DNA of 60,000 bases from Lytechinus pictus (Eukaryota). The stretch is taken from positions 36,706,001 to 36,766,000 of the forward strand of contig NC_087245.1 of NCBI RefSeq assembly GCF_037042905.1, read 5' to 3'. A program made the translations under genes and the position numbers. Positions 1 to 60,000 of the stretch are shown piece by piece (within the stretch, counting starts at the first letter, position 1; each line of letters starts with the position of its first letter). The notes under the pieces are model-generated. The model ran no database searches, had not been told where the DNA came from, and saw only the letters and a program-made list of their open reading frames with translations.

Positions 1-47
1 ATTTTGTGTAAATGTGCCACAACAGCAACTTTAGCAGTAACTCAAAA

Positions 48-745: not shown

Positions 746-916
746 CAAAAGGGAAAGAAGAAGTGATGGAATTGAATTACTCTTAACTTATGATGTTGAG
801 AGTGGATTAATCATTAAGTGTAATGATACTGATTTGACAGTTTAGTCTTTTCTAGTTAGAAGAAAAATTCTATGAACATCAAAGCTATCATGAGTGAGAA
901 ATACAGTACTATGGGT

Positions 917-15153: not shown

Positions 15154-15747
15154 AGGGGAATCCAGCCTTGGCGATACAATGTTGTGTTGGGAAGGAGAAA
15201 AATAAATTAAACAGAATGGTGACAGTTTGAAAGAAATCAGACAAGCAATAGGAAAGTTATAGCTGCTTTAAAATTGAGATCTTTAATACTATGTAGATTT
15301 TAAATTGGCAACTGGGTAAGTAAATTATGACAAGGGGCAAGGACAACTTTCCCATAGGCCATGTACTTTATTATCAGGGATTTGTGGTTTTCTCCTAAGT
15401 ACCCATTCCCCTGGGGACTGATCTAAATATAACCCAGGTAGTGTATTGTTTAATGTCCTCATGAAAGAAAAATATTATTTGAAATAAAACTTTTGGGAAA
15501 AATTACATTTTAGCCAAAATATGTATTGGAGTACATGGAAGAGTAGTCCTTGCCTTACATCACTATGACATCCCATATGCGGCCAATTTGAAGTCTCCAT
15601 GGGTATAGTGATTACCAATATTTACAACTTTAAAAAATTCATAACTTTCTTGTTGTTTGTCCAATATTGTTCAAACTTTCACCTATCAACTTGTCTGATT
15701 TTTCTTTTCCTTATAAAAACAAGTTTTTATTTGGGTTGGATTCCCCT
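15154..15747. mobile_element. Kolobok-like MITE
   Basis: TTAA|AGGGGAATCCAGCC...GGTTGGATTCCCCT|TTAA. Confidence 0.8.
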
Positions 15748-21639: not shown

Positions 21640-21929
21640 CATAATTATCACCATCATCATCCTCATCTCCATTATTTTAAAAACCATCATCATCATCCCA
21701 ATAATAATTATCATCAGCAGCATCATAATCTTCATCATTCTTTTCATCACCCTCGTCATCATCATCACTAACATCCTAATCATCAAAATCTTCATCATCA
21801 TTATCTTGAGTTCATCATCACCACCCTCGTCATCATAATCATCATCACCCTCATCATCATCATCATCATCACTAACATCCTAATCATCAAAATAATCATC
21901 ATCATCGTTATCTTGTGTTCATCATCATC

Positions 21930-21961
<32 letters not shown>

Positions 21962-21985
21962 CATCACCATCATCAACATCGACAA
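21640..21985. repeat. (CAT)n microsatellite
   Basis: Degenerate to perfect CAT triplets. Confidence 0.95.
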
Positions 21986-22181: not shown

Positions 22182-22686
22182 CTGTTCATGATAAAAAATG
22201 AGAACTTAATACCAATACACATTTCTGTAAAAGTCTATAATTGCCATAATAACATATTCTTTTTAGTAGACATCTGCTGACATGTATACTACTATGTCAC
22301 ACTACATCCTAGAAATTAAGAAAGTTAGGATTCTCAGGGGTTTGGTCCAGCAGAGCTAAATGGTCTATAATGACAACTGAATTATGACATCTTATTTTGA
22401 ATCATGTAAAAGTTCAGTTTTCTTTCTTTATTTTGATACCTAATACGAAACAAAGGGGCCATGGACCAAGTAAAGTTTGAATCTTTTAAGGTCAATTTCA
22501 AGTTGCCCAGAATAATTGATCAAGAATTTCACTTTTTGTATACAACAACCTTCTGAAAGAGAGGTGTGGCTCATTAGCATTTTTTTTATTATTGATTATT
22601 TATATTTGTTATGAAAAAGGTGTAAACAATGAATTGAATAATTTGAGGCTTATAAGAGGGTAAATTCTTGCGAGGAAATAATTCAA

Positions 22687-23296
22687 AGGTCAAGTCCACC
22701 CCAGAAAAACATCGAAATGAAAAAATAGAGAAAAATCAAACAAGCATAACGCTGAAAGTTTCATAAAAAATCGGATGTAGAATAAGAAACTTATGACATT
22801 TTAAAGTTTTGCTTAATTTTCACATAACAGTTATATATGTACAACTCAGTGACATGCAAATGAGAAAGTCGATAATGTCCCTCACTCACTATATCTTTTG
22901 TTATTTATTGCTTGAATCATACAATATTTCATTTTTTACATATTTGACAATAAGGACCAACTTGATTGAACCATGTAGTATTAAACAATGCTAATTCCAC
23001 ATGTTCAGGGAGGAATTAATCTTTGTTTCACTTAACAATGAGGATAAAATTAGAATATTTCATATTTCACATAATGAAATACAAAAGAAATAGTGAGTGG
23101 ATGACGTACGTCATCAGTCTCCTCATTTGCATACTGAACAGGATGTAAATATAACTGTTTTGTGAAATTAAGCGAAACTTTAAAATGTCATAACTTTTTT
23201 ATTATACATCTGATTTTGATGAAATTTTCAGTGTTATGCTTGTTGGATTTTTCTCTTTTTATTGAAATCAACTTTTTGTTGAGGTGGACTTGTCCT
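22687..23296. mobile_element. Kolobok-like MITE
   Basis: AGGTCAAGTCCACCCC...GAGGTGGACTTGTCCT|TTAA. Confidence 0.8.
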
Positions 23297-23300
23297 TTAA

Positions 23301-32682: not shown

Positions 32683-33204
32683 ATAAAAAGCTTCACTTTG
32701 TAATTCAAATATTTTGAATTTCAGCAGGATGGCACTTCAGTACCCTGCAGACTTGAAAATATCAGGTGATCAAAGTTCAGCATACTGTCTATTTTTATCA
32801 TTTTTATGAACTGTAAACCTGAGTGCATTTGATGCTCGAAGTTCAGCATACTTTCTATTTCAATTGATTCTCATATAATGAAAGTTTCATCATAGCAGCT
32901 GATATGATTTTCATCTTTAAAGAATAAACCCTAAAAATGCCAAATTCATATTCTAGGGCTAGAACTGCGTAGAATTAAGCGAAAATCAGACAATTCAGAC
33001 AAAGAAACATGAAGGATAGAAGATCTGGTGCCTGTTTCTTTAAGAGATACGATTGTAACTTTGCAATTATAGCAGCAACCATGGTAACAGGGCTCAGCAG
33101 CCAATCACGATCAAGGTTTCTATGGAAGTTACTAATTATAGGAAATGTGCAATACATGTACTTGCAAGTCTTTGTGAAAACAGGTCCCTGTGACCGATAC
33201 TTAC

Positions 33205-33400
33205 CTTGTTCTTCTCATATCTTCATCCATGAATCCTAAGAACTTCTTTCTTGGTGTCAGCACAGCATCCTCCGAACTTGGTGTGTTTGCCTCGGCAACG
33301 GTCATCAGGTCCTCCTGTAATGCTTTGAGGTCACCGGTGTAAGCCGACTGAGCATAGCTGAGCACAACCTTACAACAATAGGTACAGACCCGAAGGTTTC
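33205..33400 (-). CDS. PIKFYVE: PIKfyve coding exon 5 (end of FYVE domain)
   Basis: GNLRVCTYCCKVVLSYAQS...; atttccag|GA and AG|gtaagt; phase 1-2. Confidence 0.95.
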
Positions 33401-33586
33401 CTGGAAATTGCAGAAAAATAGAGAATATAGCAATATTGCTTTTAAGACAGCAAAAACATATCCATACTACATGTAGGTTTGTTTGGCCTTGCAGTCACCT
33501 GTGTAATCTGACTGAGTGTAGCTGAGCACGAATTTACAACAGTAGGTACAGACCCGAAGGTTTCCAGGATATTGCAGGTAAATAGA

Positions 33587-34694
33587 AACAAGTGGAATGC
33601 CTCTGGCCGTCTCACCTGCATCACGCGATTCAATATAGCAGCAGTGCTGATTTTGAAAACTACTATAACTCGCACAAGATGTTCAGTGATACTTGATTAC
33701 TCTTATTTCCACGTTTTATGAACTAGACCCATACACTTATAGAGATATGATGGTAATTCAACAAATACCCCCAACGTGGCCAAAGTTCATTGACCTTACA
33801 TGACCTTTGACCTTGATCATGTGACCTGAAACTCGCACAGGATGTTCAGTGATACTTGATTACTCTTATGTCCAAGTTTCAAGAGAAAGATCCATCAACT
33901 TTCCAAGTTATGATGGTAATTCAACAGATACCCCCATTATGGCCAAAGTTCATTGACCTTTGACCTTGGTCATGTGACCTAAAATGCGCAAAGGATGTTC
34001 AGTGATACTTCATTACTCTTATGTCCAAGTTTTATGAACTAGACCAACACACTTTCAAAGTTATGGCGGTAATTCAACAAATACCCCAATTTGACCAAAG
34101 TTCATTGACCCTAAATGACCTTTGACCTTGATCATGTGACCTGAAACTTGCACAGGATGTTCAGTAATACTTGATTACTATTATGTCTAAGTTTCATGAA
34201 TCAGATCCATAAACTTTTAAAGTTATGATGGTAAATCTACAGATACCCCCAATTCGGCCAAAGTTCATTGACCCTAAATGACCATTGACCTTGGTCATGT
34301 GACGTGAAACTCATGCAGGATGTTCAGTGATACTTGATTAACCTTATGTATAAGTTTCATGAACTAGGTCCATATATTTTCTAAGTTATGATGACATTTC
34401 AAAAACTTAACCTTAGGTTAAGATTTTGATGTTGATTCCCCCAACATGGTCTAAGTTCATTGACCCTAAATGACCATTGACCATGGTCATGTGACATGAA
34501 ACTCAGGCAGGATGTTCAGTAATACTTGATTAATCTTATGGCCAAGTTTCATGAACTAGGTCCATATACTTTCTAAGTTATGCTGTCATTTCAAAAACTT
34601 AACCTCAGGTTAAGATTTGGTGTTGACGCCGCCGCCGCCGCCGTCGGAAAAGCGGCGCCTATAGTCTCACTCTGCTATGCAGGTGAGACAAAAA
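33587..34694 (+). mobile_element. HINE-like family A, copy 2 (longest internal array)
   Basis: AACAAGTGGAATGCCTCTGG start, GTCTCACCTGCA / TGCAGGTGAGAC subterminal inverted repeats, ~6 tandem units, (GCC)n, 3' hairpin. Confidence 0.85.
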
Positions 34695-34741
34695 CAGTAA
34701 AACATTTTTAAAGATGAAGTTCAAGTCTAGTCACGATTTTG

Positions 34742-36344: not shown

Positions 36345-37314
36345 AGGTAAAAGACAGTAGTTGCAGCAAACAACTATTTCATTAGAAAGTCTTTTAAATA
36401 AAGGTTAAATTGTCAAAATATTATCATACATCTAGATCTGGTACATTAAAGGAGAATGAAACCCTTGAAACTAGCTGAATCCATATCAAAGAGAAAAATC
36501 AAAGAAACATATTGTTGAAAGTTTGAGGAAGATTGAATGAATAATAAGAAAGTTATGAGCATTTGAATATTGAGATCACTAGTGCCATGTAGATCCTCCC
36601 ATCGGCAATGCGACCAAGATCTGTGATATCACACACGTACAACTCCCTCATTACTTTAGTACTTATTTCACTTATATTCTTACTTTTATAGAGTCTATCA
36701 CAAGGTTAGGTGTTTTCTTTATGAGAGGACAAGTACAGAGGTTTCACAACATTATATCATTGATGAATCGTTTGTCATATGATTAGAATGAGCAAAAAGA
36801 GATGTTTTGGGGTATATTTTCAGTGTCCGAATGGGAGAGTTGTACGTGTGTGACATCACAGATCTTGGTCGCATTGCCAATGGGAGGATCTCCATAGCAT
36901 TAGTGATCTCGACATTCAAATGCTCATAACTCTTTTATTGCTAGTCCTATTTTACTCAAAGTTTTGTTGATCTTATTCTTTGATTTTTCTGCTTTCACAA
37001 AAGCTAACTTGCTCCAAGAGTTTCATTCTCCTTTAATGTAAACTTATCTTTGTAAAATCATGAAATCTTAGCTGGAAATCAATAATTCTGATGATCACTA
37101 ATATGTGGAACAGTGTATTAATATTGCTTCGAAAAATAACTGACATTTGATGGAATTCCACGCTTATTTTGCTCATTTCTCAGAAATTACACATTTTCTT
37201 CCAGAGCTATTTGGCACATATTTTCATTTATACACAAACACTTTGGTCGTAATTTCATTGGATTCTGTTCAAACTCATTATGAGATCGTTACCACAAAGT
37301 CTGGTATGTATATT
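36345..37314. mobile_element. Older Kolobok-like element interrupted by the 36450-37032 element
   Basis: Degenerate termini AGGTAAAAGACAGTAGTTGCAGC / GTTACCACAAAGTCTGGTATGTATAT|TTAA. Confidence 0.45.
36450..37032. mobile_element. Kolobok-like MITE with long inverted arms
   Basis: TTAA|AGGAGAATGAAAC...GTTTCATTCTCCT|TTAA; arms inverted over ~200 bp. Confidence 0.85.
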
Positions 37315-37583: not shown

Positions 37584-37870
37584 CTGAAATTGTGTTTGAA
37601 AAAAAAATTAAACTTCTAATTATAATGCAGGGATGTCATCATATACATGACAACAACAGTGCAATGGAGGGGGGGGGAGGAGGACCAGACCTGCCTCCTC
37701 ATTATTTTCTGAATAGTGACCAAAAAAAGAAAGAAGCCTTCCAAATGTTTAACCCTATATTACCCCTATTATTCAACTGAGAAAAAGAAAAACATGCCCT
37801 AATCACTTTATATCATCTTGATATCACCCCCCCCCCCCCGTGCGAAAGCTTCCAGTGACATATAAGATTA

Positions 37871-38205
37871 AACAAGTGGAATACCTCTGGCAGTCTCGCC
37901 TGCATTACGTGATTCAATAAAGCTGCAGTGCTGACTTTGAAAACAACTAAGACGAATAATTATTCACAAAAAACAAGTCATATGATAATGAAATACTAAC
38001 TTTAGTGACCCTAAATGACCTATGACCTTGATCATGTGACCTCAAACCTGTGCAAGACAATCTGTGATACTATGTCCAAGTTTCATGAACTTGATCCATA
38101 TACTTTTAAAGTTATGATGTCATTTCAAGAACTTTATCTTGGTTAGACAGCGCCACTGGTGATGCCACCGTCACCTATAGTCTTGCTCTGCAACGCATTC
38201 GAGAT
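37871..38205 (+). mobile_element. HINE-like family A, copy 3 (short, degenerate)
   Basis: Same 5' block, one internal unit, decayed 3' block. Confidence 0.75.
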
Positions 38206-38514
38206 GTAAATGATTAAAAATCCCCAAAACTTTCCCTAAACTTAGATCAATTAAGTGAATACAACAGAATCGTTACATTATAGAAGTAAATATCCATAGC
38301 CCTATCAATATTTATCACATTGATATAAAATATATTATGTAACCAACTCCATCAATTAACTATCCTAGGTTATAAACATGTACAGCATCAAACTGAAAAT
38401 TTTTGAATTTATATGATGTTGATTTTCATCATAACAATGTCAGAACAGTTCTTTATCAAGTTCAATTGTAGCAAGCCTCCAAAAGGGCCTAGTCACATAT
38501 AGTTCTAAAGGGAC

Positions 38515-39188
38515 AATTCTCGCTACCCCAAATAGCGATTTCGCCGAGATCCGGGAAAATCCCTGTAACGCGCATTGCATTATGGGATAGCTTTTCGGTA
38601 TTACAACTTCCTGTTCGGAAGTCCAATGCACTGTTTTGCCATTCAGAACAATAGTGCTGTCACGCACAACAACACAACGTCTCTTTCGCTCGGAAAGTTC
38701 GTGATCACAACCCTCTCTTTCACGATACAGTTTAACGGCCTTTTCTGCTAAAGTCATTAATTCTGCCCGACGCTTTCCATTGCACGGTATTCCTCTGTCA
38801 GTTAAGATTTTTTTCAGTTCCGAAACTGTTTTTTTATCCATTTTGTGGTCGACGAAAAATTGAACGGAATGAATGCTGTATATATTTAGCGTCTAGTCGA
38901 ATACGATCGTGAGGTCAGGCTGGTCTTTACTTTTTTATAACCAAATAAAAACATTTATAAAAATATAATTCAAATGGAAACAAAACTGACCTAATTAAAT
39001 AAAAAGTATTATAATTTGTACATGTTACGCTGATTGGCATCGATTCCAGCGTGGTGGAAAACTCAGTATCACGAACCTCGCGCGAGCATGACTCTGAACC
39101 GGAAGTGGTGATGACGACCCGACGGAGTGAAAATTATCTCGTATCGCACATTATGAGATTTTTGTTCCTATTTGGGGTAGCGAGAATT
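38515..39188 (-). mobile_element. TIR element carrying a truncated SAP-domain-like ORF (starts 38841)
   Basis: Perfect 21-bp TIR AATTCTCGCTACCCCAAATAG; ORF begins MDKKTVSELKKILTDRGIPCNGKRRAELMTLAEKA. Confidence 0.75.
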
Positions 39189-41528: not shown

Positions 41529-44527
41529 CATAGAGATGTATACTAATTACGCTAGAGTGCGGAGTCGCCATAGGCGCGCGTACTTAACGTCTGTGATAGC
41601 GCGGAGCGTGGTCGGCCATTGCTCGATAGGTCTAGATTTGCAGAAGTACCCGGATGTACACATAGCTCGTGCGTTGTAACACTGTGAAAAAGGGATGCCG
41701 TCTCCGGCCTTTTTTCTTTAATAAAAGAATCCAACCTCATTACAATCGAAAATGTAAATGACAAATTGCATCTCAATAAACTATTAGTGTGATTACATGG
41801 GTATTCTGCTATTAATTAATTTGGCATATTTACCTGTGACTTCTCGAGATGAAATTCTCTTAAATAATTTGCATTTACCTGTTGGTTTATCATATTTATA
41901 GGCCTATAAAAATATTGATAATGTCACGTAAATGAATACATAAAAATAAAACATACAACCTACATTAATAGAAATATTGACAATTAATTAAAAAGGCAGT
42001 GAAATTAGCCCATCTTCTCCGCTGGATTTCCCTACCTTTAACTGCATCGCCCTTTTCCACATTTCCTTCATTCACGTCACTTGATGTTCTCATGACCAAT
42101 TTGTTTATGTTGGATATAATATTTTAATTTCTATATAGGCCTACTATATGTAACTTGCTTTAATTTGTATGAAATATATCATTTTTCTAAAGTACAATAA
42201 TTTGTATTTGAAAGTAAGTGTTTTGATCTTTGATTATGCGCTATTATAGTAGTATAAAGGGTAGATCATTATTGTTCTTGGCGTTACACCAGTGTACATT
42301 CTGAATTCCGAGGTTTTACAATAAATCCAGATCGGCTGTGAATAGTGACCAGCCGAATATTAGATTAAGATTTAAACCATATAGGATTTATACATATAAA
42401 GCTAAAAGATTTGAATTCAAATCATTTGAGATTTAAAAGTTAATCCTACAGATTAAAATAATATCAAAAATTTGGCTGGTTACCATTCACAGCCGATCTG
42501 GATTTTTTTTAAATCCTTGGAATTCAAAGTTTACGTGTTGATTTTTTTCTCATAGAAACATAATAAATTCCCAAAATCTGCAGGCCTATATGGCACCGAA
42601 AATGAAATATTGATTAAAAATGTAGAGAATGACTTTTTCCAACTATTTGCTTTTTAATTCCCTTCACTTTAAGTTAGAATTGTTTTTTTATTCGCTTTTT
42701 AGGGGGTGGGTGTAATTAAAGTGTCATATACGCACCCAATCAAAATTACTTTGACACACTGATCAAAATAAAATACAAGGGGCGCGACTGGATCCCTCCC
42801 TAAAGTGAATGAACATGACATAATAAATGAATGTGATTTTATGCACCCCCTGCTTCAAAATCATTCTGTGGATGTGCTAGCCAATGAAATTAAAAGAAGA
42901 AAAATAGAAGATCAAATTCAGTTATACTTTTAAAATGACAAAACTGAATATGCAAAACGCGTGTTTACCGGTTTATGACATATATAGTGTTTGGAAATCA
43001 TTGCCATAAAGTTAACACAGACACAATTAATTAACACAATTTCAAGACAAGGATGATCACTCAACAGCTGACAATTTGTAACATCTTATTCCAAGTATTT
43101 TCAGTTTTGCCATATTCAAACAATGATTATGTTTGGTTTTAGTACTCACAATTTTGCAACCGTTTCTATAATGATAAGTTTATTAAGTTTGCATTTATGA
43201 ATCTCTTTCATGATATTGTTATCAATTGGTTTTATACACTCAGTTTTAGTAATAATCCTCAGTCTTCCCGCCCTTTTTCTTCTCTTCTCCTCCTTATTCC
43301 TCTATACTTCTTATTATTCTATCCTTGATTTGTTCACATAATATTGGTCCAATCATTATAGGAAACAAACGCCGGCCATAATTATATCAACATAATATTT
43401 CAGCCGGTTTGCCGATCTGCATAGTATTCAGCCAGAGTGAATCAAGTTTAGACTTTCCAGAAAATCAAAGTCAAATTGTTTTATGTTGCATAAAACACGC
43501 ATTGTAATTTGTTTACTCTCCGAAATATTGAAATGTTTGCAAGTCAATAATACACTGTAAACATCCAACACAAGTTTACCCCATTGCTAGGCCTCCTGTA
43601 CATTGCAAAATTGTACGACTGCATGCGCACATTTGATATATATGCAAATTTTGCTGTCAACAAACTTTTCTACATTGCTCGCAAGTATAAAGTAATCAAT
43701 ATGATCGGATGGTTGACAGCATTGGAAATTTAAATCATAAACTTATCAATTAATTGGACCAATGCATAAATCATTTTCAAATATTATCAATAAAAGTCAT
43801 TTTATGACTCACGAGTTATTGTGATGTTGGTTATATCGACGTTTAAAACCATGGGGAAAGGAGTTAGGCCCTTTTCGATATATGATTTTTATGTGTAGAT
43901 CTATATGGAAAATACATTATAAAAATTGTCAAAAGTAAAGAAATACTGAAATTATCAGCAATCAGCATCATATTAAATAGGAAACTATACTTGAAAAAAT
44001 GCAGTCGTGTTTTTTTTTTGATACCTTGTGTCTCGGATGCATCAGACACTGTGAATTTCTGAGGTCAACTTGAACACCATGTTAAATTTGCAAGACCTAG
44101 AACGATATGCCTAGGCCTGCATGTTATTTTTAATATTCATCCCTTCCAAATCATTAGAAAATAGAAGTCATATAATAATACATCGAAATGTTATGACCAA
44201 AGCAAAAACAATTGGGGATGCATTGGACTGTATTATTTGTAGGATATATCATGCCCTATATAGGCAGTTTTATCCTCAGTTTTGATGGATTCTTTGTTAA
44301 TTTGAACTTTAATCCAGTGCGATTTACAATTTTGCTTTTCCATTTGCTTTCACGCTCATATGTCATCTTTTTTGTCCTGTTCTGTGCTCATCTGTATACA
44401 TGCCCCATAGGTACAGTACGCGTATTGCAGGCTGCAAAGACCTATCGAGTAATGGCGGCCGGTCTCCGCGTAATCACAGCGATTTGATGAAGTACGCCCT
44501 CTAGCGTTATTAGTATATATCTCTATG
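41529..44527. mobile_element. P-element-like non-autonomous transposon, 3.0 kb
   Basis: TIR CATAGAGATRTATACTAATWACGCTAGAG with weaker inverted similarity for ~110 bp; perfect 8-bp TSD ATATGCCA (41521-41528, 44528-44535). Confidence 0.85.
42294..42534. mobile_element. MITE nested in the P-like element
   Basis: ~60-bp inverted arms including AAATCCAGATCGGCTGTGAAT. Confidence 0.7.
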
Positions 44528-44910
44528 ATATGCCATCAGTATATTTACGATCAAGACCAATTTAAAATAAGCTGGTTTGGTTAGTCGTCTCAGCTCACTA
44601 TGAAAATCTTTTTTTTTTCAATTTGTTTTTAATAAAAATGTATTCAGCTAATCAAAGTACCTTGATCTCTATGAGTGGATATTTACAAAGCCAATTTTAA
44701 TAGAACATTGGCTAGTGAAACTCTACAGAAGAAACACTGGTCTAAAAATGATATCTGTCCCTATTTACAAGGATTTTCTTCATTTATAATGATTTCTCCA
44801 CACAATAAATCTGGGAGAGCTCATTTACCTGTCAAGTGCTAAGTGCACTAGTCGATGTAAATATATTGGGTTTCGCAACTAACATGACTATAGGAAGCTG
44901 GCAAATCATA

Positions 44911-45917
44911 AACAAGTGGAACGCCTCTGGCAGTCTAGCCTGCATTACACAATTCGATATTGCAGCAGTGCTGCCTTTGAAAACAATTAATGAATATCTA
45001 TTCACAGAAGAAAACACTAATATGATTATAAAATATTATGTCCATTGACCTTTGACCATGACATGTGTAAAACAATCATTCATACTTGATTACCCTTATT
45101 GGGATGTTTCATGAGCTAGATCCATAAACTTTCTAAGCTATGATGCCAAATCAACACGGCCAGAGTTCATTGACCTTTAAATGATTTCTTATCTTGGCCA
45201 TGGCGCACAGGGTATTAAGGGATACATTGCTGCTCTTAAGTTCAAGTTTCATGAACTAGAGTCATAAACTTTTAAAGTTACATGTATGAAGACAATTCCA
45301 CAAATACCCTCAACATTACCAAAGTTTGTTGACTCTAAATGACTTTTGACCTTGGTCATGTGACCTGAAACTCGCACAGGATGTTCAAGGATACATGTAC
45401 TTGATTGCTCTTAATGTCCACGTTTCATGAACTAGATCCATAAACTTTCAAAAGTTATGATGACACTTCCGCAAATAACCCCAACATGGCCAAAGTTTGT
45501 TGACAGCAAGTGACCTTTGACTTCAATCATGTGACCTGAAACGCAGGATCTTCAGTGATTATTACCCTTATATGTTATTTTTATGAACTACATGTAGGTT
45601 CATATACTTTCTAAGTTATGATGACATTTCAAAAATTTAACCTTGGTTAACATTTTGATATTGAGTCCCCCAAAATGGTTGAAGTTCATTGACCCAAAAT
45701 GACCTTTAACCTTGGTCATGTGACCTGAAACTCCAGCAGGATCTTCACTCTTGAGTAATACTTGATTACCCTTATGTCCAAGTTTCATGAACTAGGTCCA
45801 TATACTTTCTAAGTTATGATGACATTTCAAAAACTTAACCTTGGTTAAGATTTCACCACCACCATCGGAAAAGCGGCGCCTATATAGTCTCGCTCTGCTA
45901 TGCAGGCGACATAAAAA
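44911..45917 (+). mobile_element. HINE-like family A, copy 4
   Basis: Same termini and tandem units as copies 1-3; carries three CATGTA insertions. Confidence 0.85.
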
Positions 45918-46739
45918 TAGACAATAAACTTGGGGGAATTCAGGTCACAAAATCTATGTTCAGCATTCTCAGTTCCTGTAATCGTTATCTATATATGTCC
46001 CGCAGTGGGAAGTGAAGAACAAAAAAACTGTCATCATAAACCAAGACAATCTCAATTTATCAAGACCGCGCCTCTACTGATGAAAGCAGCATTTGGAGGG
46101 GGAAACTGAGGGGGAAAAAATATAGCTCTACAAGTGCCTAGGCTTTAACCTTGCATTAGCAAATTATCTTACTCTTCAAAAGCCTCTAGAAAAGTATGGT
46201 AAACGCATATATCATATATCATAACCTTGTTCAAGTGGGTAAACGTAGCAATACACAGTTCAAGATTTGAAGAAATTTGGAGAATGCACCAGTACAATGA
46301 AATTTAAAATTGCAATTAAATGAAAAATAGACGAATTGGTCGATCTTTAGATCTAGAGCTAAGTTGGTTAGACATTTTTAGGAAAATTCATTTCATGAAA
46401 AGAAAATTTAGAAGTAACAAATAGAACTAAAGCGGGCACTTTAGTCTTTATTCATGATTTCACAAACTCAGTCACTCTCAACTTGTCTCATGTCATATCA
46501 TGACTTGGCTCACTCAATCTCACCTCTCGTTCAGGTGCAGGCCTCAGCATCTTCACTAAATCATAATTTTTGCATGATCCAGAATCAGATTTCAATGGAG
46601 TTTTGCATTGACATACAACAACAATACTTTGAAAACAATAGCCAAATTTGTACGCCCAGGCCAAGCTTGAAGAACCGGAAACGCAAGGTTCGCATCCACG
46701 GTCACGCCGAGGCCACGGCTCCGCATGCCAGCACACCTG

Positions 46740-47041: not shown

Positions 47042-47605
47042 CTGCCCTGGCCGCGGCAGGTCAATTATGCCGAAACGCTCGGCACTTGTCCCACCACCGT
47101 ACGCACGGTACCGGTACGGTACACCCTAACCCAGAGAGCTCCCGCCAGAAGCTTACCATGTATTTGACCATATTCACCGGACTAGGGTGATTTATGGTCT
47201 AAATATTTCTCCAAATGAATTGTGAAAACAGAAAGTATACAATTACCACGATTATATGGATGAAGGTCTAACGAGTGGCAGTTTCCTGACATCTGGGCAC
47301 AGACTGGAACCTCAAAAAAACGAAAAGTTCTCTCCTCTACCCCAGTCTCGATCGGCCATTTTGTTACGATTTTTAACAAAAATGGCCGATCGAAACGGGG
47401 GTAGAACTAGTAGAAGGAGAGAACTTTTCGTTTTTTTGAGGTTCCAGTCTGTGCCCAGATGTCAGGAAACTGCCACTCGTTAGACCTTCATCCATATAAT
47501 CGTGGTAATTGTATACTTTCTGTTTTCACAATTCATTTGGATAAATATTTAGACCATAAATCACCCTAGTCCGGTGAATATGGTCAAATACACGGTAAGC
47601 TTCAG

Positions 47606-50600
47606 GGCCCGTATTCCATAAACGAGATAAGCTTTTTGCTTAAGTCTTAGCAATTTGTCTTAGCATTTTGCTTGTCTAAGAAATCTTCCCTAACGATATT
47701 CTATAAACTTTAAGACATTTGTCTCAAGTCAGACGATATGGCTAAGCCAAAGTCTCAAAGTCAAATTCTATGACCTTCTAAACTGCTGCAGGGGTAACTG
47801 CAACAAAATAGCAAAAATGTCATTGAAGTTGTTTTTTCTTAACAAGTTTGATTTTATTGAAACTAATTACAACTATTGTAGTAAAAGAAGAGCATTCATC
47901 ACCCATATATGGTAAGAATTCTTTATTCAGATTATTCTATATTTTGTTAATTATACCAAAACATTTCAATCCCAAACCGAGTGACTTGCACAGTTTTTTA
48001 TGTATCAGTCCCATTCATTACTTTTCATGTATTGTTTGTCAAAATCTAAATGGAATAGGGTAGATTCCTCTCGACATCTTTATTCTACTTCAGTTGAAGT
48101 AGACCTAGGGTCTAAGGGAAAACATTTGTAACTTTTGAGACTAGTCTTGGGTCTAACATTAGGCCTAGATCTAGCCTAGGCCCAAGATCTACAACTAATA
48201 ATAATATCCGTCTGTTTGGAGGAGAATTGAACATTGTTTTTACTTTTTACTTTCCTGAAGGCTGAAGCAAAACGTAACTTTGTTAGTCTAGTGCCGTAGT
48301 GGAGCAACTGAGACTGAAGCTACATATAGGCCTAGATCTAACGATAGACCTATATTAGTATTGGTCTAGGCCTAGAACATGCAGGACTTAGCCTGGCTTA
48401 GCCTTAAGACAGGGATAGATCTAGGCTATCTAGATCTACATGTAGGTCTAGAATAGATCTGACTTAGACCAAAAGCTTCAGTCTCCGACTGTATTTTGGT
48501 TGTTCCGCTATTTTAGTATTACGAGTACGACACTAAACAGTCTAACGTTACGTTGGCCTAGTCTCACCAATGTGATATGACAGTAAATGTCAGAAACTTT
48601 TAAATAAATCCCCAGAAACGACGGTTATTCCTGTCAACAGTGCTAGATATATCGCTATGCATTGCTTGCCAACTATGCCTAAAGTTAGATCTAGTCCTAG
48701 TAGTAGTCTAGACATCTATCTAGATCTACTCCTGCTTTAGGTCCATCTGTTTGTTTGGAGTTTTTATTTTATACATTTTGAGGACTTGTTTAGATCTAGG
48801 TTTCCAGGACTAGAAAACAGGCCTAAACCTAGACCAACACTGGCAACAGCTCAGTCTAGACTAGGGCCTAGATTTATATAAGAATTTAGATCTAAGGCCT
48901 AGGCGGCCTAGCCTGTGCTTTCTTCTATTCATTCTAGATTTTATTTCTAGCCTATCCGGTAGCCCTAACGTTAGGACTTGCTGATCTAGTCTACTGTTTG
49001 ATCTAGAAATCTCTAACCTAGGCCTAGATCTAGACTAAATGACTTACTCACTTAGACTAAAAGTTAGACCCTATCTAGATCTAGAACTATACCAATCTAG
49101 GTGTACATAGGGTCATAGTAATAGGTCTAGATCTAGAGACTTGTAGACTCTATCTCAATGTAGATTCTAGATCTAAAAATAGTAAATGTAGGCGCTAGAT
49201 CTAGTCTAGTTCTACTCATCTAACGTTAGGCCTGAGAAAGGAAGTAGGCTAGGGATCTAGCATTGGATTATTTCTAGGACTAAAGAATCTTGATCTAGGC
49301 TTAGATATAAACTAGGGGCTGTAGTTCGAAATCTTGAGGTCTAGCCCCCCCCCCCCCCCAAAAAAAAAAAAAAAAAAAAAAACTAGAACTAAGCCCTCAG
49401 CTACATGTAGTTCTCTATGTAGCCAAACAAAAGTTAGCATTGACCATTGTCTTAATCTTTTTTGGCGTATACATGTAGTTATCATACAAACACATATTTT
49501 GATGAATGAGAAAATGTGTCTTGCAGATTATTTTAGCTCAAAACCTACATTTCATGGACATATAGGCCAATGTCATAAAATGAAGAAGTAGTTCAATACA
49601 CATCATGCTGTTTACACATTTATTGATCTGATATGCTGTTACCATGGCAACAAATTTTCAAATATATGACTTGCAGATCTACACCTCAAAATCAATGTGT
49701 GAGCCAACTTTTATAAGAATTGGTAAAACTAATAAAGGGATTCAAACCACAAGATTTTCACCTAATTTCTTTATAAATATAATATGTTGTTACCATAGCA
49801 ACACGAATTCTGATACAGGCAAAAGTATATCTTAGACATCTTCAACTCAAGACTATTGTGTGCGCCAACATTTTAGGAGAATTGACCAGTTGAAAACTGA
49901 TAAAGTAATTCAAATTACAAGATTTTCATCTAGTTTTTGTTATTTTATTTGTTGCCATGGCAACGCAATTTTTTATAAAGGCATAAAATATACTTTCCAC
50001 ATCTTCACATCAAGACTAACGTTTGTGCCACATTTCATGAGAATTGATTAAAAACTGAAGAAGTCGTTGGAACTGCAAGATTTTTACATAATTTTTGCCC
50101 TAATATACCGTTACCATGGCAACACAATTTCCGACACATGCGAAAATGTGTCTTGCACATCTTTACCTCAAGACTTATGTCTGTGGCAAACATCATGAGA
50201 AGTGGTTGAAATATTGTAAACTTGTGAAAACCACAAATTTTTCACCTAATTTTCGTTATTTAATATGCTGTTACCATGCCAACGTAATTTTTGTATATAG
50301 CCATAAAATATGTTTTGCACATCTTCACATCAAGACTAATGTTTGTGCCACATTTCATGAGAATTGGTTAAAAACTGAGGAAGTAGTTGGAATAGCAAGA
50401 TTTATACATAATTTTTGCCATAATATACTGTTACCATGGCAACACAATTTCCGACACATGCAAAATTGTGTCTTGCACATCTTTTCCTCAAATCCAATGT
50501 GTGAGCCAACTTTCATGAGAATTGGTAGAAAACCGATGAAGTAATTTAAATTTTAAATTTTGGCCATAATATACTGTTACCATGGCAACACAATTTCTGA

Positions 50601-51051
50601 AAAAGCAAAAAAAAAATTCTTACACCTCCTTACCTTAAGACCAATGTGTGTTCCAAATTTCATGAAAATCGGTTAAAAACTGAGGAAGTAGCTCGAAATG
50701 CAATATAGGTATAAATTCTTTAAAAAAAATTGGCCATGATTTGTTGGATTTAAACGTTGTCTTAAAGCAATTAAGACAACTCACAACTGTCTTAAAGTTA
50801 GGGCAAAATTCTTAGCCATGTAGAATTTATGAAATACAGACTCTGCATATTTAAGAAAAGTTACTTAGCCATTCATCCTAAATCTGTCTTAGTCGCGCAA
50901 AAATTCTTAGCCAAATTCTTAGACAAAATTCTTAGCCAATTCTTTATGGAATACGCGTTTTGGCTAAGAATTTTGTCTTGGACAGAAAACTAAGACAAAA
51001 TGCTTAGATTTTTGACTTAAGCATGCTTATCTCGTTTATGGAATACGGGCC
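47606..51051. mobile_element. Harbinger-like element, 3.4 kb, inserted in the foldback arm
   Basis: Perfect TIR GGCCCGTATTCCATAAACGAGATAAGC; flanked by CAG and CTG at a site that reads CTG in the uninterrupted arm. Confidence 0.85.
49381..50740 (+). mobile_element. HINE-like family C tandem array, 3' end not recognised
   Basis: Begins AACTAGAA after an A-run; ~160-bp units with GTTACCATGGCAAC and TTTCATGAGAATTGG. Confidence 0.7.
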
Positions 51052-52231
51052 CTGGGCTCCCGCCCGCTGCGCGGGCGGGAGCTCTCTGGGTTAGGTACAC
51101 CCGTGCAAAACACCGGGCCAGCGCCAGTGCCCAGTCGATCGCAACTTCGCGAGCCAAGGCCCGGCCCAGTCAAAGGCCGAGAATCACGCATGGAAAAATC
51201 ACACATTTTGGGCCTATCCGTCCTAAGAAAAAACTGAATTATATTAACAGGTATTAAATGAATCACATAAATTATGATATTAACCGGAGTCTAACTTACA
51301 TTCCTCGAAGGAGGTCGGAGGAGTGGTCGTGCACGGTCAGCTGATTAAAATAAAGGTAAACACGAACTGAAATTACCGGTATAAATAAAAACTGTTCTTA
51401 TTAAGGTGGTCTCAAAACATTTTTTATCTGACGATATGTACATATACCTCCAAAAGTGGGTCAATCATTTGTTTATCAATATGGAACATTTCAGGGTTTT
51501 TTCCTCGGAATAAACACATATACCGTACTTTAATTTGATTGATAGTCAATTTCAAAAGATATCATATCGAAATAAGCGTTTATCATATTCTAATCAGTTT
51601 TTAAATCATGAAAAATATTAGTTTCTATGATATCGATGCAAGCGTGAAAACCGAGCTGAGCACACTTTTGAATAAGGCCATGCGTTTTATGTTGGGCCCG
51701 CAAATAGGAGGGCATCGTTACATTTGCACGACAAGCACAGAAATGATTAATGGTATAAAACTTGAAATACATGTGCTACATGGGTATATTTAATTGGTAT
51801 CACATTAAAGGGAATCTTTATACCAATTACTTTAAAGAAAAAGAAATACATGAGATTACTTCATTTACCAGTAATTAGCAATTATGTAACATCAATTGGC
51901 CATTTTGGCATGGTGGTAGACGAGGGGGGCATGACGAGGGGAGCATGAATTTTTCTTTCATTAAGATACTAAATATATAACATCACAATACCTAAATATG
52001 TTATAGTTTGTGGGCTCACTCGCTTATTCTTTAGTCATAAGTGGGTCAAAATTGATCTTTTAAGTTTAAAGGATACCTAATTAAGCTAATTAGTATAACT
52101 AATTGATGTATATCATGAAATTAATACGATTGAAATTGCGGCTGTTTGATGTAAAGAAAATGAGGACAGATAAAATATAGTTGTGGGTTTACAACTACAA
52201 TAAAATTTACTGCTGTAAAAATTTCAAAAGG

Positions 52232-52328
52232 AAAAGCACAAACTAATTAAAGACTTCAGAGAGAAATCAATCTATTGTTAAAAGCACAAACTAATTAAAG
52301 ACTTCAGAGAGAAATAAAAATATTGTTA
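52232..52328. repeat. 48-bp tandem duplication
   Basis: AAAAGCACAAACTAATTAAAGACTTCAGAGAGAAAT...TATTGTTA twice. Confidence 0.9.
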
Positions 52329-52649
52329 ACTTGACCTCATGGTTTCAATTTTGACAGTGTAGACTGACAGTGATGACTTTGATGTGTCCGAATCTTCAGA
52401 TTATTCTGGTAACATAACAGATAGCCAGTACACCTTTTATGTAATTTTGATTGCTAAAAACTTTTTTGTAGAAAAAAAGCCCTCATCTGATGCTATTTAC
52501 TCTTTTTTCTTAATGTTACATCACATTGCGTCTATGAATCAGTAGATGACACATCTTTGGCTGGCACAAACGTTTTCAGAGAATATTTTTCACAATTATC
52601 GAAAAACTACTTGAGAACGACACTGGTACAAAGATTACACTAAACAAAG

Positions 52650-54147
52650 CACTGGCGTAAATCCGTGTTGATGGGTGGGGGGATGACTGAAATATTTTAG
52701 CATTTTTTTTGCAATCATGTTTTTAGATATGCAAGGAATTGTCATTGATATGTCCACAGTGGCGTATCGTGGGTCACGGCATTGGGGGGGGGCACCAGCA
52801 AAATTTTTGAATCACCGAGTGAGTGCGCTAATGAGCGCGCGAAGTGCGCTCAGTTGCCAGTTATACTGACCTAATAGAGACATTATTTTTAAGGACAATG
52901 TCATTAAACGGGTATGTATCTCACTGATCAAATAATACGAGCGCGAAGCGCGAGCTGAATTTTTTATATTCACACCTAAAAAGGGACATTATAATCATGA
53001 TATGTACCTGTCTCGCTAAACAATGCGAGCGCAAAGCGCGTGCTGAAAATTTAGATAATTCAGACCTGAAGTGGGGCATTCTAAGGTTTCTTTGTAGAAA
53101 TTAACTAGGACCATACGTATTTCATTAACCAAATGATGCGAGCGCGAAGCGCGAGCTGAAAATTTTTGATATTCAGTTCAGAAGAAGGGACATTTTAAGG
53201 AGTGATTTTAGGAATTCATGAAGAGCAGACATATCTCACCAATCCACTAATGCGAACGTAATCACGGACAGGAAATGTTTCATATATACGAAGACCTTAA
53301 CATGGAGCAATCACATTTTGAGTCATGAAAAAGAAGCATATGTCACTACATAAAACAATGATAACTCAAGTGCTAGGAAATATACTGTATTTGGTTTATA
53401 TTGACTTGAAAACGGGATGTTTTACTACAACAGGATTATATATCTCGTTAAACAGACAATGCGAGCACCAGGAACAATGAAGACGTAGGCCCTGGGCAAA
53501 TTATGTTTCATAAAGTTATGATAAAATGTTTCTTATGTAAAATGTAACATAACATAATTATAATATAACATTATAATGAATAATATTTTCTTCTTTCCCA
53601 CTACGTTTCTCTTCCTTTCTCCCTCTTTTCTCCTTTTCCCCCTTTCCCCGTTTTTTTGTCAGCCGATGGGGGGGGGGGGGGATGTGCCCCCATGCCCCCC
53701 GTAGTTACGCCACTGTATGTCCATATGGCAAATACCCCTCCAATATTATTATCTGTTTTACCCCATGATGGTTTAATGGTTTTATTAGAGATTACATTAA
53801 AAAAAATTTGACATTCCATCTTATTCCCTTCCCAAAGAACCCAACATTGATGAATTGGAAGAAACGGGGGTTTCTCTTCAATGTCATAATAAGGACATAA
53901 GTATTTCGTTTGGAAATGGTGAACAGGCTCTTTTTTTGCATTTTATGATTCTATAATATTGTTTTATTTGTTAAGCGGTATTTCAGGAAGAATTTTCACC
54001 AATAAAACAATTATCTCTTGTGATTTTTTTTCTTCATTTCTTTCGTAAAAAGTGGGGGGGGGGGGATGTTTGTACAGGCCATCCCCCCCCTCCTCGAAAA
54101 GTGGGGGGATATATCCCCCCATCCCCCCCCCGGGATTTACGCCAGTG
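52650..54147. mobile_element. hAT-like non-autonomous element (outer)
   Basis: TIR CACTGGCGTAAATCC; 8-bp TSD AAACAAAG. Confidence 0.85.
52757..53715. mobile_element. hAT-like non-autonomous element (nested)
   Basis: TIR CAGTGGCGTA; 8-bp TSD TATGTCCA; internal GCGAGCGCGAAGCGCGAGCTG repeats. Confidence 0.85.
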
Positions 54148-55144
54148 AAACAAAGGCAATTGTACCCATAGAATGTGTTTTGTATTGGCATTGACATTCA
54201 ACCCAGTACCAAGAGACCATGTCCTGCACAATGTTGAGCAAAAGGATTTAAAATATAACACTATAAAATAAAATAATCGAAGTATTTTTGCCAGGTTTAA
54301 GATAAATGGATTTATTCATAACATGTTAGTTGCTTTTCCTCACATTAAGTTAAAGCTAAAGCAGTTATGAGAAGTTTTCATTGTGCATTCATATTTTCCC
54401 TATATTTATGTTAAACCTGACTCTCAGTTGTCAACCTTTGGTCCACCGGTCTTTGAGCCAAGACATGACAAATCCCACGATTTAAGTCAAATGAAATCTT
54501 TTTTTATTCATAATAACCACAGTAAATATATTATAATATACTGGTTAGTGTTTGCAAGTGTATTTATGCAACTAAAGGCAAGACTTAATAATATTTTGGA
54601 GGTAAATCAAGTATTGTTACATATTACCCGAAAAATTGTGATGTGAAATTTTGTCTTAAACTGAGATGATCGCGCAAGATTATTTTGGTAAAAGTTATTC
54701 CTAACAAGTTATATATCATTGGAAAGGCCTCACTCTAAAGAGTTGAAATATGCATGTTATTTTCCTATAGGGTGTAAAGTTTTTCTGATTCTAATATTTA
54801 TTGGGAAGTATATTTTTTCACAGTTTTCCACATATTTTGACCTTTAACTTTTCGTGACATTACCCTATGCCTGTTCTGATTGCAATTTTGAATTCCTCAG
54901 ACAATTTCCTTTCAGAATATATATACTTTTATGGGTATAGGATGTCAAACATAAGAAAAAACTGCAATTGTATGAAACGGTGCGATTTTGGAGGAAAATT
55001 TGAGTTGTAACGAAAATGGGCCCAACTCAAAATGCATGGCCATAAACAAATAAATGCGAGCATGAAGATCGAATTGATCATTAAGCACTGTTTAATGTGT
55101 AGGACCGTTTATGAAGAGGGCATTTTTTTATACTATAAATGAAG

Positions 55145-55310
55145 CTGGGGCCGCGGAAGCGGGGGGGGGGTGCGGGGGAGGCTTCAGCCCCCCCCCCTTT
55201 TTTTTTTCAAAACCGTGTACAAAAACGTAAAAATGACCATATGACTGTGATTTTTGCATGATCAGCCGCCCCTCCCCCTCTCCCACTTTGAAAACTTTTC
55301 CCGGCCCCTG
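55145..55310. mobile_element. Short hAT-like MITE with 5-bp duplication
   Basis: TGAAG|CTGGGGCCGCGGAA...TTCCCGGCCCCTG|TGAAG. Confidence 0.6.
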
Positions 55311-55316
55311 TGAAGC

Positions 55317-58300
55317 CAAGAGAGGTGGAACGTATTTTCTTTTAGGGGGTGGGGCAAAGTTAAAAGGTCACTTATATGTCAAAATGGGCATTTTGGTGCA
55401 ATTAACGGATATTTTACCCTGAGATTACCTTCTGCGTGAAGTGGTTTGTGTTTTGAACAAAGTCATTTTGAAGTGATTTCTGATTGATAAGAGATTGATA
55501 AGATTAGGTTTATATATGTAAGAGAAAAAAAAATCAAATTTGAAGTTGTAAAACTCGCTTTTGGTCAATTATGGCGCTAATTTCTGTCAAAAGGGTATAT
55601 ATCTTTTCGAGATGTTGCAAGCGCGAATCGTGTGCTCAAATTATTAGACATTCCATGTAATAAGACATTAACTAAAACATTCTGAGCAGTTTTTGTAATC
55701 GTGAAAAAGATGTGTTGGCCTAACTACAGGGAATTTTTTAGGGGCAAGTGTCCCCTAGCAGTCCCCGGTTCCGCCACAACTGAGTGAAGCGAGCAAAATT
55801 TTGGTGGAGGATTTAGCTACAGCAACTCGACATTCTAAACTCTAATCAAAATGCAAGCGCGTAGCGTGAGCTGAACATTTTGTCTAAATTCAGCAGTTTT
55901 TGTAACAAGATGCGTAATCCCGTCTCTCGCTGAAACAAAGCTACAAAAATCAAATCATGAGCATGATAATCTCTTTAAATTAACTAAAAAACGAGATATA
56001 CTTTTTTAAATCTTTTTATACCTTTCCTCCGCTCCTTTACTTTTTTCTCCTAATTTCTTTGCTCCTTTTTTTTTTTTGGGGGGGGGGGCTGTTTGCAATT
56101 GGCGGAGTTCCGCGGAACCCAGGGACCCACCCCCCCCCCGGCTTCGGCCGTAAATTGGGTATCCTACATTAATAATGTGAGCGCGAAGCGCGAGCTGAAA
56201 TTTTTTTGATATTCTAATCTGAAACTGAATAATTTATTATAAGCATGTTTTAAATAAAGAACAAGCTGCGTAACTCAATAAACATGCGTGTGTTTAAGAT
56301 TTATACCTAGTATCTGGGCATTCTAAATTTATTTTTTATCATGAATATCATTAAAGCGAGCGCAAAGCGCGAGCTGAAAATATTTGATATTCCGATCTGA
56401 AAAGGGGCCAATTTAAGCTTTAATTCAAGCACTGTGTAGGAAAATTGATAAATGGATATTTGGATCTTAATAAAATAATGATAAAACGAAGCGCAAGCTG
56501 ATACTTTTATCAACATTATTTTGAAGTAGGACCGGGACATTGTAAAGATGTTTTGTCATCATTTAAAAATGATGACTATCTTCCCATTTCCCTTCCTAAG
56601 CGCGAGATATTCCATTCTGAAAAAAAAGAAGACATTTTAGTTATTAAGAATTAATGAAAATGTAATTACTTTATTCATTAATCTAATAAACCTAATGACA
56701 GCTCGAAATTTGTTGATATTAAGGCCTGAAAACTCGACGATTAAAGCACTTTTGTGATTATGAACAGGATGCATGGGTTGATAAAATATGCTAGCGCAAA
56801 TCGCGGTGTCATAAAAAGGGGATTTTAAGTAGAATTACCGTTATTAGAGGTAAATATAGAGGTATACATTACTCAGCAATCAAAATGCGAGTGCACAGCG
56901 CTGGCTGATAGTAATAGATTTCGACAATCAAACCTAGCTGAAAAGGGATATTTGGAGAACTTTATGGAATACATGAAAAGAATAGGTATTGACAAATCAA
57001 ACAATGCGAGCGCGCAGCGCGAGCTGAAAATGTTGATACTGAGACAATAAAACGGACATTTTACAGAGCACTGTTTGAAAATTAATTTGTAAATCAAACA
57101 AAATAATGAAAGCTCGATGTCAGAGGTGAAATGCGTTTTTATAATGACTTCAAAACTTGGAATTTTAAGCTCCATTTCAGCCTATTGAGCAAGAATTTTA
57201 CGTATCTCATTAAACATGGAATGCGAGCGCGAAGCATGAGCGAAAATCTAATAAAGTGACATAAAATATTTTTTTCACTTTATTTTCCAAGTCTTCCCCT
57301 CACCTTATTTCATTCACTCGTCTTCCTCCCTTTTTTCCTCCCTTTTTTTTCTTCTTTCCCCCTTTTTTCTATATTGCTCCTCCAATAGGGGGCGGGGGCG
57401 GGCCGCTCGCCCCCCCGGATGCGCCTTTGTAAATTTGACAATAAAAAAATATGGTTTCACTCCATATAAATGAAGGTCGTATTTTGGTGCCAAAAAAATG
57501 ACAAAGCCCCCCCCCCCCCCCAGAAAAAAAAAGGTTTCAACACAAGATGTTGGTAATTTCCCATATATTTCTCCAAAGTGACACACCTACCAGAATTCAA
57601 GGGGGTGCTGCCGATGAAAATAATACACACAGCACCCCCTGGGAAAATCTTGGGGGTGCTTCAGAGCACCCCCGCTTCCCAGGTCCATGACAAGATGTGT
57701 ATCTCAATAAACCGTTAGAAAATGTGCGCGCAAAGAGCGAACTAAATTCTTGTTATGAGTCAGGAGTTAGTTAGGACTGAAAACAAGATTTTAAAGAGCC
57801 TTTTCGAAATTTTGACTGTAATGTATATGATCTTGCAAAAAATAATAAAAATGCGAAGCGCAAATGAGATGTGTCTCCATTATAATGTAATAAGTTGCAG
57901 CAATAAATAATTGATGCACTTAATCAGCTGTCAATCCCAATGTTTTAGTTCTTGGTAGAAAATTTTTGAATAAACCTAATTTCATATAATAAAATACAAA
58001 AGAACAAGTGAGGGTATGACATCATCAGCCCATCACCTAATGAATATTCATAATAATAATGATAATAATATATGTGATTTGTAATGCGCCAAATCCACTC
58101 GGCAGAGTGCCCAAGGCATAAAGACATGCCTAGAACTGTTTCACCGAAATAATGCAAATCTTTACAATTCATAACTTTGTTATTTGTTATCCGATTTTGA
58201 TCAAATTTTCAGCATTTTGCTTTGTAAATTTAACTCTATTTATTTAGATATAAATATTTTCAGCCTGGACCATCCCTTATTTTGTCACTAAAGTCTATTT

Positions 58301-58790
58301 AGGCTATATAGCTTCATCGTTTAGTTCAAGTTTTATTTTCATTTCCATCATTAACATTATATAAACAAATACAAATCAAACATACATCATATATGTATAA
58401 ACAAATACAATATTCAAATTAAATATAATTTCGATGATTAAAAATCAACTTCAATTTCGAAAACATTTGTAAAACAGTTTTAACAAAATACTGTTTAGAA
58501 AAGGATATGTATTTCTATCTCATTAAACAAGCAATGCGAGCGCGAATCGCGAGCGGATGTTTGTTTACAGTGACCCAAAGGTTTGATGTCTATACCGAGT
58601 CCCCACTCATTTTCTTCACATTTCCTCCATTGTTTCTTCTTCTTTATCACTCCACTTTTCCTTTGTTCTTTTCTTTTTCTCTTCTGACAGCTGCTGCGCG
58701 ATCAGGGTTCGCGCCTATATCTTTCACCCCCCCTCCTAATCTATTTAGTATGCCAGAGGCCGCAAGCAACAACCCTAAGTAGATTTACAA
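55317..58790. repeat. Cluster of decayed G/C-run elements with dispersed GCGAGCGCGAAGCGCGAGCTG units and a partial Kolobok-like MITE (~57870-58280)
   Basis: Motif recurs at ~55850, 56180, 56355, 57005, 57220, 58535; boundaries not resolved. Confidence 0.6.
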
Positions 58791-60000
58791 TTTCACAGTG
58801 TGACAAAAATTAAAAACTGATAGTTCATTTTTCAGTCCCGTACTCATTTTTTTTATTTTTCATCTTCGTTATTTTGTTATTTTGTCACGGGATGTGCATG
58901 GGCACTTAGAGCCATTCCGATATCTTTCTCTTTCCCCTTTCCTCCTTATTCTCTCGTCTCTTCCTCTCTCCCTCCCCTCTAGCTTCTATCCCCTTTCCCT
59001 ATTTATCTTCTTTCTCCCCCGGCTTTCCCCTTCTTTTCTTTCCCCTCTCCCTTTTCCTTCCTTCCTTCTCTTTTTCATCCTTCGGCTTCCCCCTCCCTTC
59101 GCTCCCCCTCTTTTTTTGACAAAAAAGTTTTCAAAAGGGGCGGGCACGAGACGGAAAATGCCTCTCTTGGTCCGGCAACTGCATTAGTATAATAAGGTAA
59201 ACTATGTGTTTTCATTTCTTCTTGGCAGGGACTTTTCTTTTTGGTGTCTTTTTCCCCTCTTTCTTGGAGGAATAGGCCTATTATTAAATCCTCTCCCATC
59301 CCAATAAAAAATAGCAATAAAACACTAAAAAACACACACAAAAGCAAGAACATATACTAAACCAGAAAAAAGTTGGATATTATCGTAATTCTGTTTTGAT
59401 TATACGTATTTATCTCAATTAAAAAATTATTAACATCATCAAACAACTAAAAATCCCCCACCCTTTCACCTATTCCTTATCTCATTCCCTCTATCTTTCT
59501 CTTCACAGCTACCAGAGTTTCGGAATTGTATTAGTTCGAAATTTCAGTTTCAATGATTAGTCAAAATTGATGTTTTGATTACGCAACCGAATTGAAAGAT
59601 TCGAATGCCGAACTAGAGTTAGTTACACTGTCACTGACACTGTCTGACCGGCTTTTGTGAGCTGCCTGAGGCTGATTTCTAATATAGGTAAGTTTAATAC
59701 TTAATAGTTCTTGATTTTAGTGAAGCACTGTGTCATTTTTCCTAAAAAAAGACTATACCGGTAGGCGGTAGTTCGAGCTTTAGTTTAACTTTAACTAAGT
59801 TTTAAAAAAGGAAACAGAATGAGAGATTGAGAATGAGAGCTTAGACTCGGCCCGGTCATGATCATGCCGGTCAAGAGAAAAGACGATAAAAGTTGAGACA
59901 AGTCTGAAAGTGAAAAATGAATGTGCATGATGAGTGATGGGTGATAATTTCTGAATCTGATTGATTGAGTGATGACTGTCTACAATGGTCGATAGTCTAT

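Follow-up and report, generated by a model that had tools for sequence, protein, structure and literature searches.

The repeat and its setting

Why does one palindromic word, TACATGTA, occur three times in a single copy of a tandem repeat whose sister units have a plain TA at the same positions? This question was addressed in a window of 60,000 nucleotides of Lytechinus pictus DNA, the whole stretch that was analyzed. The window has a base composition of 36% G+C and contains two rhodopsin-type receptor genes, many repeats, and, on the minus strand, the 5' portion of a PIKfyve gene with exon matches between about 28.7 and 37.5 kb. One receptor gene (6805-7853, minus strand) is spread across two reading frames, and the other (18171-19385, plus strand) forms a single frame.

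The host repeat, labeled HINE in the first-pass annotation, is built of tandem units of about 160 bp. Copy 4 was placed at 44897-45920 by self-BLAST and a tandem finder, and self-BLAST located its sisters at about 47-751, 33574-34697, and 37869-38145. Beside copy 2, a PIKfyve intron end and exon start are present in tandem duplicate (33486-33586 versus 33322-33422, period 164), and a TACATGTA at 33468 lies between both copies, near the junction. The duplicate could act as a decoy acceptor. A CpG-rich stretch of PIKfyve intron also holds a SAP-domain reading frame of 150 amino acids (38443-38892, minus strand), which is probably a transposon remnant and has no relatives among viral contigs.

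Exact six-nucleotide insertions at TA

All insertion tests were based on paralogues. When 13 repeat units (2,098 bp, 151 TA sites) of copies 1, 2, and 4 were aligned, TACATG proved to be added at three separate places, with a single unit of the 13 carrying it in each case; this gives TACATGTA at 45279-45286, 45392-45399, and 45589-45596. At each of these sites, the other 12 units lack the extra CATGTA. The three words are thus exact 6-nt insertions relative to a plain TA, as the first-pass annotation had proposed, and the 8-mer is not the ancestral state there. All three polarized sites belong to one repeat copy, copy 4.

Nine minority insertions were found in the 13 units, namely, four of 1 nt, three of TACATG, one other 6-mer, and one 7-mer. 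TACATG therefore makes up three of the five insertions longer than 1 nt. The simulated probability that a random 6-nt insertion yields TACATGTA is 8e-5, and at this value per event, chance and an ancestral state are excluded for the three copy-4 sites. The two other multi-base insertions (6 and 7 nt, at 584-590 and 45747-45753) each make a small palindrome together with the sequence beside them. They look like inverted flank copies, which suggests that insertion also occurs by a second process, a templated one.

Every palindromic TA-N4-TA word of the window, 67 in total, was compared with its paralogues by aligning full and collapsed contexts. A spanning paralogue hit was obtained for 12 words, 9 of which are CATG, GGCC, or GATC words; two of these nine (43896 and 48333) were dropped as AT-rich or short self-like hits. 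Among the seven interpretable words, five are +6 insertions and two are same-length substitutions, a number about equal to the background-count prediction. The latter two, TAGATCTA at 444 and TACATGTA at 32566, were rejected as scars because their sisters have equal length.

Beyond copy 4, TAGGCCTA at 2135-2142 carries the added letters GGCCTA relative to a plain TA at 31759 in a sister MITE. This agrees with the earlier claim, and since the comparison covers two copies only, the +6 is relative and can be read in either direction. A further TACATGTA, at 33153-33160, had also been described as 6 nt longer than its relative. It is probably a +6 insertion: the collapsed context aligns gap-free to 26183-26136, at a modest 71% identity across 48 nt, and CA takes the place of TA in the relative. 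At the four clear sites and at this weaker one, the added bases stand between duplicate TAs. Four dispersed TACATGTA words, at 9438, 10606, 11181, and 11539 (9438-11546), have no paralogue. The proposal that several TA-targeting families were active here is partly supported: of the five cores named, only CATG (four sites) and GGCC (one site) are shown to be insertions.

That these words arose by chance, reflect an ancestral state, or come from an assembly or library artefact, the cores being restriction-site words, is scarcely credible. Such an origin would suit the two interpretable words without a length change, the two-way reading at 2135, and two TACCGGTA words at 30884 and 30890. The last pair is ambiguous: both words coincide in part with the truncated terminus of an interspersed repeat, which reads TRCCGGGTACC in its intact copies. 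Against it stand the 12 of 13 units without each insertion, the probability of 8e-5 per event, and a similar word excess in independent assemblies of other organisms, described below.

A process without transposons would be an alternative source of real insertions. A nuclease or repair polymerase could make a staggered cut at TA and insert or copy a short palindrome, through template switch, snap-back synthesis, or copying of a nearby CATG. Copying has some footing, as CATG or ACATG is present within 60 nt of 45279 and 45392. The first-pass statement that the core is not locally templated does not strictly hold at those two sites and does hold at 45589, 2135, and 33153, where no local template for the core was found. 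The flank-related palindromes of the two other multi-base unit insertions also point toward such a process, as do the lack of a donor element in the window for most cores and products more uniform than the footprint spectra given for the ZB (0-3 bp; PMC7913693) and Passer (0-4 bp; PMC9976928) transposons. However, an identical core stands in unrelated flanks, the three sites named have no template, and the word excess is limited to few cores and requires TA on both sides. We therefore regard a transposon-free origin as unlikely.

Word excess, clustering, and flank bias

Word counts across the window were compared with an order-2 Markov model. In the whole window, observed and expected counts were 17 versus 1.6 for TACATGTA, 16 versus 1.0 for TAGATCTA, 9 versus 0.4 for TAGGCCTA, 6 versus 0.2 for TACCGGTA, and 3 versus 0.35 for TAACGTTA. 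Without the patch at 48-49.5 kb and the CAT tracts, TACATGTA remained about 9-fold enriched (14 versus 1.5), and the counts were 3 versus 0.7 for TAGATCTA, 5 versus 0.3 for TAGGCCTA, and 6 versus 0.2 for TACCGGTA. The tracts left out are long degenerate (CAT)n stretches at 926-1414 and 21685-21980. The excess is limited to a few cores and requires TA at both sides. Of the 15 other symmetric pairs that can flank CATG, TTCATGAA, which lies within the repeat unit, and GCCATGGC are the sole prominent ones; none of the 15 is prominent around GGCC.

TACATGTA words are clustered, with a median gap of 1,067 bp versus a simulated mean of 2,405 bp (P = 0.005), and are missing from positions 1-9,000 and 49,501-60,000. 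The density of CATG scars is about one per 4 kb. The base beside TA is biased to G and T (A 4, C 3, G 11, and T 14 in 32 half-sites of 16 sites; P = 0.007). The expected numbers for 32 half-sites are T 11, G 5, and A 11, so that the bias is not purely one toward A and T. Clustering and a biased base beside TA would both be expected if an enzyme selected its targets. One-mismatch variants of the words are barely raised (46 versus 36.5 expected), which implies that most words are fairly young.

Self-complementary overhangs would be expected to make some cores missing, and the cores were compared for this reason. Of the four cores with such overhangs (GCGC, CGCG, ATAT, and TATA), none is clearly enriched, against 5 of the 12 others, a difference that is not significant (P about 0.18).

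Over-represented palindromic words may also be read as transcription-factor sites kept by selection. This was proposed for the same non-coding word, TACATGTA, as motif 1 of Phytophthora, where it lies upstream of 12,070 genes and is taken for a binding site, Irx-like or Myb (PMC3520976). In that report, the footprint idea is set aside, whereas here the paralogues reveal an insertion origin. The patch at 48100-49340 might likewise be regulatory. Yet selection cannot create exact TA-duplicating insertions three times in 320 bp of a decaying repeat and would affect retention only, which makes it a very improbable source of the words.

Probable excision footprints of TA-targeting elements

With moderate confidence, we interpret the +6 words as two-ended excision footprints of TA-targeting elements of the Tc1/mariner type, in which both 2-nt overhangs were kept by Pol X fill-in. 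The analysis itself supplies TA duplication, a constant core, polarity at three sites, a word excess, clustering, and a flank bias. Duplication of TA around a constant palindromic core that is independent of its flanks is a prediction of two-ended excision of a TA element and thus supports this interpretation. It is best for CATG and less good for GGCC; GATC, ACGT, and CCGG enter as candidate footprints by word counts only.

Insertion at TA with duplication of the TA is established for the IS630-Tc1-mariner group. On excision, the non-transferred strand would be cut 2 nt inside each end, presumably leaving two non-complementary 2-nt 3' overhangs, CA/CA or GG/GG. A Pol mu-type polymerase of the X family would then fill in across the gap, and end joining would keep both overhangs, with TA+CA+TG+TA or TA+GG+CC+TA as the predicted outcome. 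A footprint mechanism of this type is already known. In Tc1/mariner excision, the transposase cleaves the non-transferred strand a few bases inward from the element end, and the footprints consist of the terminal 2 to 4 nt between TAs after end joining, in a form that varies by host cell (PMC6943129). With non-complementary 2-nt 3' overhangs, fill-in by Pol mu was accurate at 13 of 14 junctions; bases were lost when the overhangs were longer (PMC2396419).

In Sleeping Beauty (SB), ZB, and Passer, too, terminal bases stand between two TAs after end joining of 3' overhangs, and the form depends on the host cell (PMC6943129, PMC7913693, PMC9976928). They differ from the present case in their cores, 3 nt from one end for SB and of the lengths given above for ZB and Passer, in contrast to a 4-nt palindromic core here. 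ZB prefers AT-repeat flanks as targets, ATATATAT (PMC7913693); the base beside TA is biased here too, but not purely toward A and T. Natural fixed footprints that hold fragments of both element ends were also recognized from alignments for Stowaway elements in a Triticeae beta-amylase intron (PMC1925063). There, variable scars were described at one locus and the elements persist in other lineages, whereas the scars here are uniform and dense.

A separate comparison is with the worm element Tc1. Excision footprints of Tc1 were reportedly described by Eide and Anderson in 1988. In Caenorhabditis elegans, TA is doubled around bases of the element ends, and the same 8-mer, taCATGta, is among the reported products (PMC3520976). 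The first-pass annotation had taken TA+CA+TG+TA to be what Tc1 excision leaves. This holds in that the footprint exists, but it is described as rare (PMC3520976), and 78% of somatic Tc1 scars in C. elegans are of the +4 type (PMC12632400). The window presents the reverse, with the 8-mer about 9-fold enriched and no enrichment of the one-ended +4 scar, TACATA/TATGTA (54 versus 49.8 expected in the window, P = 0.29); a share of 78% would require an excess of about 40 or more. A difference between hosts would explain this reversal. X-family polymerases number three in sea urchins and zero in nematodes (PMC12828229).

Among the matches listed from the open literature, no account of an animal genome densely marked with uniform TA-N4-TA scars was found. 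The window adds clear polarity at three sites, a GGCC case for which a matching element exists, a lack of +4 excess, and the chained multi-core patch described below. A transposon that excises usually leaves behind nothing that can be counted. Were one scar per 4 kb the rule, the genome would preserve a map, open to dating, of where elements once inserted, which targets they preferred, and how germ-line ends were joined, and the scars would be a real source of small indels. Where motif finders label an over-represented palindromic word as a binding site, footprints also offer an alternative that can be tested.

Candidate donor elements

The first-pass annotation had reported a TA-flanked GG...CC element in the window and had inferred several TA-targeting families with different ends. 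The element is present at 2973-4667. It is a non-coding inverted-repeat element of the form GGGG...CCCC, with 23 of 25 terminal bases inverted, and TA is the sole flanking direct repeat at these ends; no empty site was seen. TA reads the same on both strands, so that an inverted repeat starting with TA will always appear TA-flanked, and this holds for 2973-4667 as well. It is the sole element of the window with ends that clearly match an enriched core, and its termini fit GGCC under a model of two bases from each end. For the other cores, no unambiguous TA-flanked element with CA..TG, GA..TC, CC..GG, or AC..GT ends was found in the window.

Several look-alikes were rejected. The non-coding 3-kb element CATAGAG...CTCTATG at 41529-44527, a candidate for TA-flanked GA..TC ends, has an 8-bp duplication. 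The AC..GT look-alike and the pair at 47127-51093 each have a 9-bp duplication, locus L060 from another organism has a 6-bp duplication, and the element at 15154-15747 has TTAA flanks. For 36444-37038, TA and TTAA flanks are equally readable, and CA..TG ends appear under only one of these readings. MITEs with TTAA flanks and AGG ends occur at 15154-15747 and 36450-37032, with related ends near 20268 and at 22685-23297; we take them to be Kolobok-like. A Pfam scan of 10 window ORFs (from 40 ORFs) identified no transposase family.

The donor search bears on a further alternative, in which the terminal four bases of the elements are themselves palindromic (CATG, GGCC, GATC, ACGT, or CCGG), and a 4-nt stagger leaves cohesive overhangs that are ligated directly. 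The element Minos leaves a scar of 4 nt plus TA. The available parts of PMC7386202 and PMC6980720 contain no information on element ends or Minos scars. Cohesive ends would explain the uniform +6 product and the missing +4 scars without fill-in. Nevertheless, in the window and the fetched loci, a small sample, no TA-flanked element starts with one of these 4-mers, no sequence recurs after TA plus core, and the sole matching element begins with GGGG. Direct ligation of 4-nt ends is therefore quite improbable.

A patch of chained words

A CTAG-rich patch at 48100-49340 contains 21 TA-N4-TA palindromes (13 GATC, 4 GGCC, 3 ACGT, and 1 CATG), versus a mean of 3.2 and a maximum of 9 in 300 trinucleotide-preserving shuffles. 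Some words are chained on a common TA, TAGGCCTAGATCTA three times and TAGATCTACATGTA once, and 4-nt TA-to-TA spacers amount to 30% in the patch versus 7% elsewhere. CTAG reaches 29 and 21 per kb in the patch bins versus 0 to 7 in other bins. After removal of the 21 words, CTAG still makes up 27% of TA contexts in the patch (31% before, 2% elsewhere), so the intact words account for little of the CTAG excess.

The patch has no paralogue, its collapsed form, with the 21 words removed, matched nothing else, and we infer the insertion origin of its words. The chains are as expected if the TA of an earlier scar was hit again and again; for Stowaway, an element that inserted anew at such a TA has been described (PMC1925063). 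Around the patch stands an inverted-repeat pair (47127-51093) whose 9-bp duplication is perfect, and in which an inner, GGGCCC-ended inverted pair is nested at about 47603-51054. Given its position inside inverted-repeat pairs, the patch may be mobile-element cargo. Also nested in 47127-51093 are a palindromic MITE of 460 bp, which has a CAG duplication, and a 158-bp tandem array.

Excision with fill-in, as favored above, can be extended to a broader proposal, which taken as a whole is possible but doubtful. Host Pol X end joining, rather than the transposase, would fix a uniform two-ended scar for several TA-targeting families and so build chained CTAG-rich islands. Each scar would provide two new TA targets, and scars starting with G (GATC and GGCC) would set these TAs in a TAG/CTA context. 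Repeated hits in accessible germ-line chromatin could then give rise to chained CTAG-rich islands such as 48100-49340. If this were true, the local base composition would in part be a fossil trace of traffic by transposons and of access to germ-line chromatin, and that trace would include words read as promoter motifs in other taxa. A resemblance to fish promoters rich in TAACGTTA/TAGCTA found no support among the literature matches listed (the best 7 of 9).

Contigs of other organisms

A loose pattern was used to fetch 120 metagenome loci (287,570 bp) from other organisms that carry a related repeat. The specific repeat pattern had no copies in metagenomes, and the pattern scans found none in viral contigs. 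Six occurrences in prokaryote genomes were used only in the element scan and not in the counts. In the 120 loci, TAGGCCTA is 17-fold enriched (39 versus 2.3 expected), and TACATGTA (20 versus 6.7 expected) and TACCGGTA (10 versus 2.7 expected) are also in excess.

None of four polarized 6-bp insertions in the 120 loci has the TA-palindrome form. Paralogues were available for 4 of 38 TAGGCCTA words, all of the same length and none an insertion. They were also available for 4 of 20 TACATGTA words, three of them of the same length and one an insertion inside a microsatellite. These tests were mostly negative, so that it is only through word counts that the finding extends to other taxa.

Inverted-repeat pairs that are TA-flanked and have CA and CC ends are present in loci L021, L026, L048, and L009. 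The shorter word TAGCCTA is found 52 times in the other organisms' contigs versus 19.9 expected. Among the testable TA+GCC/GGC+TA words of the loci, 2 of 7 are insertions; for TAGCTA, the figure is 1 of 13. Insertions relative to sister repeats, TA+GCC/GGC+TA (+5) and TA+GC+TA (+4), were seen at L033:525, L008:1956, and L094:448.
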